Shown here in pieces: positions 31,136 through 36,794 of a stretch of DNA of 64,000 nucleotides. Both the position numbers and the translations under genes were made by a program. The stretch lies in NCBI RefSeq assembly GCF_054482595.1, contig NZ_CM137008.1. One strand, given 5' to 3'. Under the pieces are notes generated by a model. It worked only from the letters and a program-made list of their open reading frames with translations. It searched no databases and was not told the DNA's origin. Each line of letters begins with the position of its first letter. The stretch's first letter is position 1.

Positions 31136-31996
31136 TTAAGATGCCTTTCTAACCAACCGATGCCCCTCATTCATCATCAGGATTTTGCTATACACATCTT
31201 CCTCGACGGCGTTTTTTGCTGATGCCATGACTCGTGCCAGATTCGCCTCGTTGTGATTATTCACATACGCTTTGCCGACGGTGGTGATAAACGCTTTGCG
31301 CAGATCGCTGGCGATATTTACTTTAGCGACGCGATAATTAACAAAGCTGCGTAATATCTCCGGGGCGATACCGGAGCCGCCGTGAATAACCAACGGCACC
31401 GGACAGACTTCGGCAATGCGCTTCAGCAGGGGGATATCGATACGCGGTATATCGTCCAGGCCATGAACGTTGCCAATAGAAACTGCCAGCATGTCGCAAC
31501 CGGTACGCTCGACAAAGGTCTTCACCTTTTCCGGTTCCGTTTTGCAATCGGCTTCGCTGACGTGATCATCTTCTTTGCCGAGAATCGCCCCCAGCTCCGC
31601 TTCAACCGGTACACCATAGGATTTACAGAAATCGACAGCTTCCTGGGTGAAAGCGATATTCTCTTCAAAAGAGAATGCGGCACCGTCAATCATGACCGAG
31701 GTAAAGCCCGCGCGCACCGCCTGTTTCACATCCTCCTGAGTTTTCCCGTGATCCAGATGAAGACTGACCGGAACATCCATTTTATCGGCGTGACGTTTCA
31801 CGATTTCATAAATGTAATCGTATCCCGAGAGTTGTGCATTGGTTGGCGCAATCTGAATGAAGTTGGGTAATCCCGAACGCTCAATAGCGTTTAAAATTGA
31901 AATTGTCGTCTCCAGATTGGTGGTATTAAATGCGCCCGCTAATACCCGTTTTTCCTGAATGCGGTCGAGCAGTATCCGTCCATTAACTAATGGCAT
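31136..31996 (-). CDS. Class II ketose-1,6-bisphosphate aldolase (fructose/tagatose-bisphosphate aldolase family)
   Basis: 286 aa; class II aldolase signatures (…SLHLDHG…, …IHGGSG…); last gene of the PTS island operon. Confidence 0.85.
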   Translation of the reverse strand: MPLVNGRILLDRIQEKRVLAGAFNTTNLETTISILNAIERSGLPNFIQIAPTNAQLSGYDYIYEIVKRHADKMDVPVSLHLDHGKTQEDVKQAVRAGFTSVMIDGAAFSFEENIAFTQEAVDFCKSYGVPVEAELGAILGKEDDHVSEADCKTEPEKVKTFVERTGCDMLAVSIGNVHGLDDIPRIDIPLLKRIAEVCPVPLVIHGGSGIAPEILRSFVNYRVAKVNIASDLRKAFITTVGKAYVNNHNEANLARVMASAKNAVEEDVYSKILMMNEGHRLVRKAS

Positions 31997-32027
31997 ATTG
32001 AAAACCTCATCTTTTAATATCAGTTAA

Positions 32028-32297
32028 TTATTCAGCTTCACCGAAGCGGTCGCGAAATAAGTCGGTGAGAGTCTGTATGGCCTCGTTTTCATCATCACCG
32101 TCGCAGCGTATTTCCACCGTTTTTCCGCCTTTTATTCCGGCGCGCATAATATTCATCATGCTGGTGGCATTAATATCATTACCCTCATAGTGCAGCGTCA
32201 CTTTACAGCTATATTTTTTGGCGGCTTTCGCCAGACAGGCCGCCGGACGTGCATGCAGGCCAGTACTGTTTCTGACCTCCACGGTTTTATTCAACAT
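32028..32297 (-). CDS. HPr-like phosphocarrier protein
   Basis: 89 aa; active-site His context NSTGLHARPAA. Confidence 0.8.
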   Translation of the reverse strand: MLNKTVEVRNSTGLHARPAACLAKAAKKYSCKVTLHYEGNDINATSMMNIMRAGIKGGKTVEIRCDGDDENEAIQTLTDLFRDRFGEAE

Positions 32298-33795
32298 AGT
32301 GTTCCTCCCGATGATGTAATGGCATCACGCCTTCTTGTTGTAATTTCAACTGATACCAGCTTTTCCATTTGTGCTGATAACGCTGTAATTGATGGTATCT
32401 CGCCCGATTCGGTAACAAACGTTGGGCTATAGCGACTGGCGGCGGTGGAATATCCGGTGCGGCGGTTAATAATGCTCCGACAGAAACCGCCTCGTTAAAT
32501 GCAATTGCTTCAACCGGACGCTGTAAAATATCCGCCTTTAATTGCAGCCAAAGAGGATTATGGGTTGCCGGACCGATCACTTTTAACGCGCTGGTGCCAG
32601 GCACGTTAAAACAGGCGAAGCAGTTGGCAAATTCCATGGTTAATCCCAGTGATACGCTGGCAATTAACATGTCGATACTTAACGTATCGCCAAGCCCATA
32701 AAATAATCCACGGGTATGGCGATTTTTATAGGGCGAACCCGAACCGCGAAGATGTGGAATAAAGACGGGAATGTCATCGAGCAACCAATTCCCCGCCAGA
32801 TAATCAGCATGTCCGCGAGTAAGTGATGCGGCGATCTCCTCATCGGTTAGCCGGAACGTGTTGCGCAGCCACTCCAGCGCGAAACCGCCCACGGGCAGCG
32901 ACGCAAACAGGGTGAACTGGTTGGCAAGTGAGTAACAGCCGTTTGCCAGCTTGTCACGTTTAGCCTGTTCATCCAGCGTCGGTTGTGTATCCAGTTGCAG
33001 AATGCCTTCCGTGGTCCCCGTCGAGTTAAGGATATCGCCTGGCATCATCTGCAACGCTCGCGCACCCACCATATGGTCATGTCCGGCCAGCGTCACGCTG
33101 ACCGGTTGCGAGAACCCAAGCGTCTTGCAAAGTGACTCGCTGACCCATCCGGCGTGCTCGCCTGGCTGCACCAATGGCGCAAATGCCGTACAGGGAACGT
33201 GTAACAACGCCGCCGCTTTCGCTGACCATTCGCCTTTGCGCACGTCCAGACACAGCGTGCGGCTGGCTAAGGTGATATCCGTGCGCTGTTCGCCAGTCAG
33301 CCGCCAGAGCAGCACTTCCGGCGCATGTAGCCAGCGCAAGCTGCGGCGATTACGCAGCGGGTAATGTTCCAGCAACCAGCGCATTTTGAAGGCAGAGTAA
33401 TTACTGTGTAGTGGTAGACCGCAGATGTCATAAAGTGCCGCACTGTCTGCCTCGCTAAGCGTTGCCAGATACTCTTCACCGCGACGGTCATACCATGCCA
33501 GCATTGGCGTCAGGATCTCGCCATGCTCGTCAAGGAACACGCCTGATTCGCCAAAACTGGCAATGCTGATCCGTCTGACTGGCAGCGGCGAAGCGGCGTT
33601 CAGTTGCGCTATCGCCTGGCGGACCTCCTGCCAGAGGGCGTCGATATCGAAATCGACATCGCCCTGTGGGGAGATCTGCTTTGCCGTCACGAATTTATGC
33701 GCGCCCAACGTCGTTGCGTCCAGGCAGGAAAAGCAGGTGACTTTGCAATTGGTGGTGCCAATATCGATAACGATAGCTGCGCTGTTATCAGGCAT
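32287..33795 (-). CDS. FGGY-family carbohydrate kinase
   Basis: 502 aa; N-terminal AIVIDIGTTNCKV ATPase phosphate-1 motif; size typical of FGGY kinases. Confidence 0.7.
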   Translation of the reverse strand: MPDNSAAIVIDIGTTNCKVTCFSCLDATTLGAHKFVTAKQISPQGDVDFDIDALWQEVRQAIAQLNAASPLPVRRISIASFGESGVFLDEHGEILTPMLAWYDRRGEEYLATLSEADSAALYDICGLPLHSNYSAFKMRWLLEHYPLRNRRSLRWLHAPEVLLWRLTGEQRTDITLASRTLCLDVRKGEWSAKAAALLHVPCTAFAPLVQPGEHAGWVSESLCKTLGFSQPVSVTLAGHDHMVGARALQMMPGDILNSTGTTEGILQLDTQPTLDEQAKRDKLANGCYSLANQFTLFASLPVGGFALEWLRNTFRLTDEEIAASLTRGHADYLAGNWLLDDIPVFIPHLRGSGSPYKNRHTRGLFYGLGDTLSIDMLIASVSLGLTMEFANCFACFNVPGTSALKVIGPATHNPLWLQLKADILQRPVEAIAFNEAVSVGALLTAAPDIPPPPVAIAQRLLPNRARYHQLQRYQHKWKSWYQLKLQQEGVMPLHHREEHYVE

Positions 33796-35974: not shown

Positions 35975-35998
35975 TTTATTCCTCTTAAAAAAGTGTAC

Positions 35999-36754
35999 TT
36001 AACTCACTTCCCGCCGTTGCAGCACGGTGCCAAGATAATATTTATTTCCTTTTAACCAGACGTTGCCAAACTCAACGGGTAATCCTCGGGAGAAAAAGAC
36101 TAACTGCTCCAGATGCAAAACGGGTGCATCTTCACTGATATCTAAAAAATGACCGCGTTCATTACCAATTAATCGCGCGGCATAGCGACTTTCCGAGTAA
36201 CGAATTTTTCTTTGCGACAAACTTTCTATTGTTGGAAATAAATTGTGTTGATTAAAATCGATTTCCGCGATGCCGGGGCATAGCTCAATATTGATACGGT
36301 TCTCTATCAGCATCGCTTTTTCATCACCAATCGAACGTAAACGTTCAAGGTAAAGAATATCCTGACCGGGCGTTATTCTTAATTTCTCTGCTACATAACG
36401 ATTAGCCGGTTCAATCCGTGACGTAATAACTTCAGTGGTAAAATGTATTTTCTGGCTTTCCAGCGATTCCGCGAATGACAATAATCCTTCACCTAACGGA
36501 TAGGCCACGTTCTCTTTTTTGACAAATGTTCCCTTGCCCTGGACCTGAATCAACACGCCTTCTTTTACCAGTTGGGCGACCGCTTTTTTAACGGTTCCCC
36601 GACTGACTTCCAGCATATCCATAATCTGGTATTCCGAAGGGATGCGATCGTCTTCCACCAGATCTCCGGTATAAATACTTTCTCTTATCCACTCCACCAC
36701 TTGTTGATAGAGCGGTATTTGTGACGACTTACTTAATGATTTCATGGCGCGCAC
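35999..36754 (-). CDS. GntR/HutC-family transcriptional regulator (winged helix plus UTRA effector domain)
   Basis: 251 aa; N-terminal helix-turn-helix …IPSEYQIMDMLEVSRGTVKKAVAQLVKEGVL…; first gene of the PTS operon. Confidence 0.85.
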   Translation of the reverse strand: MRAMKSLSKSSQIPLYQQVVEWIRESIYTGDLVEDDRIPSEYQIMDMLEVSRGTVKKAVAQLVKEGVLIQVQGKGTFVKKENVAYPLGEGLLSFAESLESQKIHFTTEVITSRIEPANRYVAEKLRITPGQDILYLERLRSIGDEKAMLIENRINIELCPGIAEIDFNQHNLFPTIESLSQRKIRYSESRYAARLIGNERGHFLDISEDAPVLHLEQLVFFSRGLPVEFGNVWLKGNKYYLGTVLQRREVS

Positions 36755-36769
36755 CTGAACATTTACAGT

Positions 36770-36794
36770 TGTCTATGGACAATCATGGACAACT
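36770..36794. promoter_or_regulatory. Candidate operator for the GntR-family regulator
   Basis: Inverted repeat TTGTC-tatg-GACAA overlapping a 10 bp-spaced direct repeat ATGGACAA, 16-40 bp upstream of the regulator start. Confidence 0.4.

Follow-up and report, generated by a model that had tools for sequence, protein, structure and literature searches.

A 64,000-nucleotide stretch of Escherichia coli DNA (contig NZ_CM137008.1 of the RefSeq assembly GCF_054482595.1), referred to here as the window, carries on its minus strand, at positions 31136-36794, an accessory island that is a complete seven-gene operon for the uptake and breakdown of a sugar. It encodes a GntR-type regulator, the components EIIA, EIIB and EIIC of a phosphotransferase system (PTS), an FGGY-family carbohydrate kinase (K1), an HPr-family phosphocarrier and a class II aldolase. 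We propose that the island is a self-contained, inducible catabolic operon in which the PTS provides the first phosphate, K1 the second, and the aldolase cleaves the resulting ketose bisphosphate; we see about an even chance that this is correct. The substrate is most likely a ketohexose that the enzymes of central metabolism cannot handle. The locus is already known and annotated and is not the discovery of a new element; new are its architecture across phyla, the finding that a PTS and a second kinase exclude each other, which is indicative of a bisphosphate route via the FGGY kinase, and the exclusion of D-tagatose.

In the proposed pathway, phosphate would be passed from phosphoenolpyruvate via Enzyme I to His15 of the island HPr, on to His67 of EIIA and finally to Cys9 of EIIB. 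The Gat-family EIIC would import the sugar and release it phosphorylated at a terminal hydroxyl. The FucK-like kinase K1 would add the second phosphate, probably at C1, resulting in a ketose 1,omega-bisphosphate, which the Zn-dependent class II aldolase would split into dihydroxyacetone phosphate (DHAP) and an aldose phosphate (glyceraldehyde 3-phosphate in the case of a hexulose). The HutC-type GntR protein would repress the single promoter via TGTMYAT repeats at 36767-36794; a phosphorylated intermediate presumably releases the repressor, and CRP probably assists activation. We infer the order and positions of the phosphorylations, the bisphosphate intermediate, the effector and the sugar itself.

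The evidence for two phosphorylations comes from relatives of the island. A kinase-family profile search of species-representative genomes yielded 80 loci, and these were then analyzed by tblastn with the seven island proteins. The island proteins were also compared with the gat genes and four FGGY kinases of strain K-12, and NCBIfam equivalog/subfamily cut-offs were applied. An aldolase gene is adjacent to the kinase gene in 77 of the 80 loci, the remaining three being located on truncated contigs, and a Gat-type EIIA/EIIB/EIIC set is present in 67. The loci with such a set come from Enterobacterales, Enterococcus, Selenomonadaceae, lactobacilli, Bacillales, Coriobacteriia and Gilliamella. 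The architecture of the E. coli island, type A, consists of regulator, PTS, kinase and aldolase, has no dehydrogenase and is found in E. coli, Salmonella, Klebsiella oxytoca, Citrobacter, Cedecea, Rahnella, Enterococcus, Selenomonas/Centipeda and lactobacilli. Type B loci, which are found in Pantoea, Erwinia, Raoultella, Gilliamella and Bacillales, additionally encode one or two Zn-dependent alcohol dehydrogenases (ADHs), one of them GatD-like (230-238 bits, which is under the cut-off), and often a phosphatase. The actinobacterial type C lacks the PTS and encodes a transporter of the ATP-binding cassette (ABC) type and, directly downstream of K1, a second FGGY kinase (K2). K2 is XylB-like (330 bits with TIGR01312, cut-off 380) and shares the GDNAA and GQxH motifs with XylB.

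All 11 PTS-less loci encode K2, whereas none of the 67 loci with a PTS does. Since K2 replaces the PTS where the latter is missing, two phosphorylations seem to be required, together with one aldol cleavage. Kinase and aldolase appear to form an invariant core, to which the PTS and K2 may contribute as interchangeable suppliers of one phosphate. The motifs also suggest a division of labour between K1, which would act on C1 and has the motifs of FucK and RhaB, and K2, which has those of XylB. The actinobacterial aldolase-K1-K2 loci (Arthrobacter, Catenuloplanes, Microbacterium and others) resemble the island in K1 (33-38% identity), the adjacent aldolase (47-50%) and a GntR/UTRA regulator; they differ from it in having the ABC transporter and the XylB-like K2, sometimes with a third FGGY kinase, in place of the PTS and HPr. 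In Arthrobacter sp. AK04 (locus L084, 1-1736), the third FGGY kinase is encoded beside a DeoC/LacD-type (class I) aldolase, and the two form a second kinase-aldolase pair within the same polyol cluster.

K1 is encoded at 32287-33795 on the minus strand and consists of the domains PF00370 (FGGY_N) and PF02782 (FGGY_C). Its AlphaFold (AF2) model has a pLDDT of 90.5, and a Foldseek search with this model retrieved xylulose, glycerol and gluconate kinases with TM scores of 0.77-0.84 and an E-value of about 1e-32, at only 18-22% identity to the solved structures. A preliminary description of the island, made from the sequence alone, had called the kinase FGGY-like, and on proper alignment both domains and a TM score of about 0.8 bear this out. 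At least 93% of 74 members of the kinase family retain the residues D11/G13/T14, D240, G260-T261 and G408, and D240 is aligned with the Asp of the GDNAA/GDQQ motifs in XylB/GlpK. An assignment of K1 to an FGGY kinase of known specificity (XylB, GlpK, FucK, RhaB, GntK, LsrK or the pentulose kinases) was rejected because the respective cut-offs were missed: K1 reaches 145 of 380 bits for XylB, 127 of 590 for GlpK and 120 of 471 for FucK, and likewise falls short for RhaB. Structure prediction and fold search confirmed the fold and assigned no specificity group, and a PDB search with a 45-residue peptide covering the catalytic motif gave no matches.

Among the four K-12 FGGY kinases compared (FucK, RhaB, XylB and GlpK), FucK is the closest to K1 (26% identity, 107 bits). 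The AGHD and FGxxG motifs of K1 are those of FucK and RhaB and not the ones seen in GlpK. FucK and RhaB phosphorylate C1 of 2-ketoses. K1 belongs to a distinct FGGY subfamily and is proposed to act as a ketose-phosphate 1-kinase. At the basic residues R105, R179, H239, H241, H348 and K420, K1 departs from the XylB-like K2; read as a sign of an anionic substrate, these residues were discarded as weak, since GlpK has an Arg aligned with R179 and further Args at or beside R105. A survey of the FGGY family mentions no PTS-linked subfamily (PMC3245297). A broader reading would see in K1 an unrecognized FGGY subfamily acting on a phosphorylated ketose. Together with the Gat PTS and the aldolase clade, it would make up a widespread, undescribed pathway by which Enterobacterales, Firmicutes and Coriobacteriia use a rare ketose, and Actinobacteria would have a version with an ABC transporter and two kinases; D-psicose is one candidate substrate. 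We put this forward tentatively and would sooner expect it to fail than to hold.

The aldolase gene (31136-31996, minus strand) encodes a predicted class II (Zn) ketose-phosphate aldolase of the PRK07998 clade. With 558 bits for NF005943 (cut-off 364) and 219.8 bits for TIGR00167 (cut-off 215.6), the protein is, judged by its profile scores, a member of the class II metal-dependent ketose-bisphosphate aldolase family (PF01116). It stays below the cut-offs of the specific models for GatY (239 of 383 bits), KbaY (181 of 542) and fructose-bisphosphate aldolase (237 of 343) and is 36% identical to K-12 GatY. An identity as GatY/KbaY tagatose-bisphosphate aldolase or as fructose-bisphosphate aldolase was rejected on account of these missed cut-offs and of the missing open reading frame (ORF) for a GatZ partner. 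The closest relative in the PDB is AgaY (1GVF), and YdjI, which belongs to the same family, was also matched there. Asp82 and His83, His178 and His205 of the island aldolase are aligned with Asp82 and His83, His180 and His208 of AgaY, which we take to be the catalytic Asp and the Zn-binding His triad in 1GVF, and they are kept in at least 95% of 73 family sequences. In addition, Arg255 of the E. coli aldolase lies within one position of the aligned Arg of the "DPR" motif, the equivalent of Arg331 of E. coli FbaA, which presumably binds the distal phosphate.

Several points weigh against the bisphosphate route. As far as we know, action on a sugar that already bears a phosphate has not been demonstrated for any FGGY kinase, and the kinase step is thus without precedent. 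With just 26% identity between K1 and FucK, common motifs are a weak basis for inferring the position of phosphorylation. The equivalent of FbaA Arg331 is R or K in 49 of 74 aligned aldolases and S, N or A in the others, and this comparison lends no support to a bisphosphate substrate. YdjI, of the same aldolase family, cleaves a ketose 1-monophosphate. Furthermore, the Salmonella island is reported to be repressed by H-NS (PMC3604774), so that the operon may be poorly expressed in the laboratory.

The exclusion between PTS and K2 is equally compatible with a pathway in which cleavage comes first. In that case, the PTS (or K2) would make a ketose 1-phosphate, the aldolase would release DHAP and a free aldehyde, e.g., D-glyceraldehyde, and the FGGY kinase, as a triose or aldose kinase, would rescue the aldehyde by phosphorylation, similar to mammalian fructolysis. 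Such a pathway would also account for the two kinases of the PTS-less loci, and it is in line with the poorly kept Arg331 equivalent, with the monophosphate-cleaving YdjI as a close PDB relative of the same fold family and with the scores of K1, which place it about as near to glycerol kinase as to xylulokinase (127 and 145 bits, respectively); glycerol kinases can phosphorylate glyceraldehyde. However, K2 resembles XylB, whose family phosphorylates a distal hydroxyl and not C1, and the actinobacterial aldolase would have no 1-phosphate to act on unless K1 provides one. K1 itself has the AGHD and FGxxG motifs of the C1-kinases FucK and RhaB and not those of GlpK. We thus consider cleavage before the second phosphorylation unlikely.

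The three EII proteins are, at the level of sequence families, members of the PTS galactitol (Gat) family. EIIA (PTS_EIIA_2 type; 35501-35974, minus strand), which NCBIfam places in the mannitol/fructose/galactitol type, is 25% identical to K-12 GatA and reaches 58 bits with the GatA model (cut-off 139); its His67, within an AIPH sequence, is aligned with GatA His62. EIIB (PTS_IIB type; 35223-35504, minus strand) is 35% identical to GatB, with 58 of 95 bits, and Cys9 is aligned with Cys9 of GatB. We assume GatA His62 and GatB Cys9 to be the phosphorylation sites. The permease EIIC (EIIC-GAT; 33788-35146, minus strand, with the start according to RefSeq and an alternative GTG at 35176) covers 406 of 407 positions of the TIGR00827 profile (E = 8.5e-143), reaches 476 bits with a cut-off of 542 and is 34-44% identical to the K-12 gatC region. 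The galactitol-family permease of the preliminary description is thus confirmed as EIIC-GAT, yet it is not GatC, and orthology of EIIA, EIIB and EIIC with the galactitol transporter GatABC was rejected, as all three cut-offs were missed at these identities. Orthologues carry PF03611, PF00359 and PF02302.

The proposed private carrier of the operon is encoded at 32028-32297 (minus strand) and is indeed HPr-like: it scores 103 bits with TIGR01003 (cut-off 47.9) and has both His15 and Ser46. The best specific model is a Gram-positive-type HPr (77.7 bits, compared with 50.6 bits for E. coli PtsH); the protein is an orthologue neither of PtsH (50.6 vs. 153 bits required) nor of NPr (49 vs. 119 bits). 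HPr is the most diverged island component between E. coli and Salmonella (48% identity). A private HPr is encoded in all Enterobacterales loci and in a few loci of Bacillales, and in none of the other loci retrieved, including those of Firmicutes.

An ORF listing of 29000-39500 placed seven complete ORFs on the minus strand between 31136 and 36794, all where the preliminary description had them, and likewise the flanking genes, nikR on one side and a hicAB-like pair on the other. The NCBIfam profile scan backs all seven gene assignments, and the precomputed Pfam domains of the Salmonella orthologues are GntR+UTRA, PTS_EIIA_2, PTS_IIB, EIIC-GAT, FGGY_N+FGGY_C, F_bP_aldolase and PTS-HPr. The RefSeq annotations of O157:H7, CFT073 and Nissle 1917 list the identical set of seven genes. 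The genes are tightly packed, with overlaps of 8 nt between kinase and EIIC and of 11 nt between HPr and kinase, and the widest intergenic gap measures 76 nt. Neither a dehydrogenase gene, whose absence had been remarked upon before, nor a GatZ-like ORF was found among the ORFs of the island, and an Rfam scan matched no family in it.

The missing dehydrogenase bears on the question of whether the substrate is a rare ketose or a sugar alcohol, both of which had been considered. In the relatives, the dehydrogenase seems to be an optional front end that turns a polyol into the ketose. As the ADH-bearing relatives form a separate architecture, the ADH-free E. coli type more likely takes a ketose than a polyol; of the two earlier suggestions, the ketose is thus favoured and the sugar alcohol has become less likely. 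A similar split is observed among the type C loci: Arthrobacter has a Zn-ADH and an SBP_bac_1-type ABC system, which we take to be of the polyol type, and the locus of Catenuloplanes has no ADH and a Peripla_BP-family, ribose-type (RbsB-like) ABC system. The latter system is taken to import a monosaccharide. The actinobacterial split mirrors the two types of PTS loci and indicates that the E. coli type takes up a ketose directly.

It could be argued that the island serves a hexitol and that the dehydrogenase is encoded elsewhere, for instance if GatD or some other Zn-ADH is borrowed. In favour of this are the membership of the EII components in the galactitol family and the close relatives in Pantoea, Raoultella and Bacillales, which have GatD-like ADHs and clearly serve polyols; moreover, the aldolases of Raoultella and Serratia are 90% identical to that of E. 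coli. However, where a dehydrogenase is needed, it is encoded in cis, as is the case in 29 loci. The layout without an ADH is a conserved one in its own right, reaching from E. coli to Enterococcus and Selenomonas, and its equivalent in actinobacteria, also free of an ADH, has an ABC transporter of the ribose type (RbsB-like). Compared with E. coli, the ADH type has a kinase of only 35% and an EIIC of only 55% identity, pointing to another ligand. A polyol system therefore appears improbable. Pentitols were rejected by reasoning, as pentulose 5-phosphates would require neither the kinase nor the aldolase.

The ADH loci of Serratia, Raoultella, Buttiauxella and Superficieibacter (L053, L055, L056, L057 and L070) combine an aldolase that is 90% and a regulator that is about 70% identical to the E. 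coli proteins with a kinase of 34-38% and an EIIC of about 55% identity. This pattern indicates a shuffling between a regulator-aldolase-HPr module and a PTS-kinase module in loci of this kind. In Enterococcus raffinosus, E. malodoratus and E. avium (L029, L030 and L032, about 10900-19000), a second class II aldolase (51-52% identical) is encoded directly downstream of the module. Next come what appears to be a PTS of the mannose family (four small genes), a Zn-dehydrogenase and a further FGGY kinase. These downstream genes possibly constitute a sorbose-type operon; the three species belong to the sorbose-positive E. avium group.

The first gene of the operon encodes the regulator (35999-36745, minus strand; start according to RefSeq, with the ORF extendable to a GTG at 36754). 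Full-length NCBIfam matches were obtained with HutC-type proteins alone (PhnF, TreR and HutC), all under the equivalog cut-offs, and the Salmonella orthologue, which is 83% identical, has GntR and UTRA Pfam domains. With a winged helix and a UTRA effector domain, the protein is presumed to be an autoregulated repressor of the operon. The repeat reported upstream of its gene (36770-36794) was confirmed. Its minus-strand sequence is AGTTGTCCATGATTGTCCATAGACAACT; it spans 36767-36794 and consists of TGTMYAT repeats with a 10-bp phasing that end in a palindrome. It is positioned 22-49 nt upstream of the regulator ATG. The core pattern has one exact match in the island region, compared to 0.06 expected by chance per whole window; a weak match with two mismatches at 58608-58625, far from the island, is probably due to chance. 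All full-length type A loci of Enterobacterales have TGTMYAT repeats some 45 nt upstream of their first gene, as do loci of Selenomonas, Gilliamella and some Enterococcus, and in type B operons that are split, the repeats precede both transcription units. Based on this strong comparative evidence, the repeats are probably the operator of the HutC-type regulator.

Conserved blocks in the upstream regions of 15 Enterobacterales orthologues suggest a promoter region at 36803-36891 (minus strand), with a -10-like TACTAT at 36803-36808, a putative half CRP-like site, TGTGAGACGCTTCGAT, at 36830-36845 and a putative degenerate CRP site with two mismatches at 36876-36891, all on the minus strand. The site equivalent to the latter is a perfect TGTGA-N6-TCACA in most of the genera, among them Klebsiella, Cedecea, Rahnella, Phytobacter and Mangrovibacter, and the palindrome lacks one half-site in E. 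coli, E. whittamii and Citrobacter amalonaticus. A promoter scan found no canonical sigma-70 promoter, which would fit a dependence on an activator. The promoter/terminator scan gave no more matches than expected by chance, and CRP-like sites are not enriched in the window. At the other end of the operon, between the stop codons of hicB and the aldolase gene, the sequence TATAGCGGC-N17-GCCGCTATA at 31089-31123 can form a hairpin, which is followed by TTTTT on the plus strand and probably serves as a terminator, chiefly of hicB. With a loop of more than 8 nt, it was passed over by the terminator scan.

Of the complete E. coli genomes, 5426 in all, 1635 (about 30%) contain the entire island, always on the chromosome and in a single copy, and the window is 100% identical to strain XH990. 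In comparison with the island-free E. coli strain SMN013SH2 (L002), homology stops at 31097 and restarts at 36946, which delimits a strain-variable segment of 5.85 kb (31098-36945). In SMN013SH2, hicB is followed by an unrelated stretch of 110 bp (L002, 6099-6208) and then by nikR; this filler bears a long palindrome of its own (AACTGAACTTAATTT/AAATTAAGTTCAGTT), and the empty site is thus not a clean deletion. No direct repeats flank the borders of the island, and the insertion of a mobile element with target duplication was rejected for this reason. The hicA/hicB-type toxin-antitoxin pair (30455-31086, plus strand) is located between yhhJ and the island, and nikR (36944-37345, minus strand) forms the other flank. 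In the B2 strains CFT073 and Nissle 1917, the island adjoins yhhJ and the hicAB pair is missing; some island-free strains, on the other hand, keep the pair. The hicAB pair and the island are independent insertions into the same hot spot between yhhJ and nikR.

A cryptic, silenced remnant with no present function in E. coli is an explanation that we regard as no less improbable than a polyol system. The G+C content is 0.42-0.51 over much of the island and 0.54-0.62 in the nik flank, the orthologous Salmonella island is reported to be AT-rich and repressed by H-NS (PMC3604774), the upstream CRP site is degenerate in E. coli and perfect in other genera, and no phenotype has been reported. However, the window, O157:H7 and Nissle 1917 each have the seven genes in intact form, the kinase cluster comprises 4169 full-length member sequences and about 100 shortened ones, and the genes are transcriptionally induced in bovine gut contents (PMC6199705). 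In the record NC_004431.1 (4060793-4062300; L093, 30794-32301), the kinase gene of CFT073 is annotated as frameshifted, with 1 bp missing at nt 1370 of 1509. One base more is spanned by three later assemblies of CFT073 and by Nissle 1917, whose kinase gene is intact; the frameshift was thus rejected as a sign of decay, and the kinase "pseudogene" of 2002 is probably a sequencing error.

Several known systems resemble the island. The E. coli operon gatYZABCD-gatR likewise combines Gat-family EIIA, EIIB and EIIC with a class II ketose-bisphosphate aldolase. However, it encodes GatD and GatZ, neither of which is present in the island, and it borrows PfkA, whereas the island has its own FGGY kinase and its own HPr. 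The regulator is of the GntR/HutC type in the island and GatR, a DeoR-type repressor, in the gat operon. A fragmented copy of gat, aga or kba, the objection that had been anticipated, was rejected: the proteins share 25-44% identity with GatA, GatB, GatC and GatY and miss every specific NCBIfam cut-off, and the seven-gene unit, or a six-gene core, is conserved as a unit across phyla. With the low identities, the missed cut-offs and the lack of GatD and GatZ, the earlier observation that the operon does not match the canonical galactitol, tagatose and N-acetylgalactosamine routes also stands. FucK/FucA and RhaB/RhaD resemble the island in pairing an FGGY 2-ketose kinase with a DHAP-releasing aldolase; unlike in the proposed island route, their substrates enter unphosphorylated via permeases and are cleaved as monophosphates. 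FucA and RhaD belong to another family, class II aldolase/adducin.

The TagTH-TagK-GatYZ pathway of K. oxytoca and Salmonella comes close to the proposed route, as a PTS-derived ketose phosphate is converted by a kinase of its own to a 1,6-bisphosphate and then by a class II aldolase to two triose phosphates (PMC9720028). Its PTS belongs to the fructose family, in contrast to the Gat-family PTS of the island, and its tagatose-pathway aldolase requires GatZ, for which the island has no similar gene. TagK is a PfkB-type kinase, whereas that of the island is of the FGGY family. The D-tagatose (tag) cluster of B2 strains (ECOLIN_RS18670-18695 in Nissle 1917) is also an accessory ketose locus of E. 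coli with a class II aldolase, which cleaves a hexulose 1,6-bisphosphate (PMC9720028). This cluster differs in its location (accC-yhdT) and its ABC transporter; its 321-aa sugar kinase makes tagatose 6-phosphate, the second phosphate is added by the host PfkA, and its aldolase is 64% identical to GatY, compared to 36% for the island aldolase. The closest counterpart is STM3779-STM3785 of Salmonella, an orthologous seven-gene unit with the same operator motif and protein identities of 48% to 89% (HPr 48%, EIIA 61%, kinase 63%, EIIC and aldolase 89%), in which the order of aldolase and HPr is swapped and which occupies a different chromosomal site.

That the island is a redundant or diverged system for D-tagatose or galactitol, i.e., a second gat/tag-like pathway, is highly improbable: the logic would be that of the TagTH-TagK-GatYZ route (PMC9720028) and the best solved relative of the aldolase is the tagatose-bisphosphate aldolase AgaY, but the identities to GatA, GatB, GatC and GatY are low, the equivalog cut-offs are all missed, and Salmonella and K. 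oxytoca have the island on top of tagKTH and gat. Moreover, deletion of the tag cluster or of the tag kinase in Nissle 1917 abolished growth on and consumption of D-tagatose under aerobic and anaerobic conditions (PMC9720028). As the island of Nissle 1917 is intact, it does not support the use of D-tagatose there, and D-tagatose is an unlikely island substrate.

No substrate is named in the papers found on the island loci of E. coli and Salmonella. According to one of them, the Salmonella island was gained by subspecies I, is AT-rich and repressed by H-NS and is "needed for unknown carbohydrate utilization" (PMC3604774), and STM3780-85, which are expressed in permissive chicken caecal communities, were listed under "unknown sugars" in 2024 (PMC11000858). 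In EDL933, the contents of the bovine rumen, small intestine and rectum induced Z4875-77 4- to 14-fold, and the genes were just termed a galactitol transporter (PMC6199705). CFT073, which carries the island at the nikR locus, contributed c4276-c4280 to a list of uncharacterized metabolic clusters in 2010 (PMC2831201). The published expression data fit a gut nutrient.

Regarding candidate sugars, D-psicose, D-arabinose, lactitol and raffinose support growth of Nissle 1917 and not of K-12, and the responsible loci were not assigned (PMC7924626). Derivatives of K-12 do not grow on D-allulose unless alsE is overexpressed (PMC12216980). D-psicose is thus a weak lead for the island sugar; it is based on a correlation between two strains, and we consider it unlikely at best. 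The aldolase family is associated with the opposite C3 configuration to that of D-psicose, which counts against this sugar. Papers on E. coli B and W contained nothing on psicose or tagatose.

The island is one of the few complete sugar operons without an assigned substrate in the best-studied enteric pathogens. Its hosts include O157:H7, uropathogenic and probiotic B2 strains of E. coli and Salmonella subspecies I, and the identity of the sugar would add a nutrient-niche determinant that is relevant to colonization and competition. If K1 does act on a sugar phosphate, this would extend the known chemistry of a large kinase family, and if the route for a rare ketose holds true, it would provide enterohaemorrhagic E. 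coli O157:H7, B2 E. coli and Salmonella subspecies I with a private gut nutrient.

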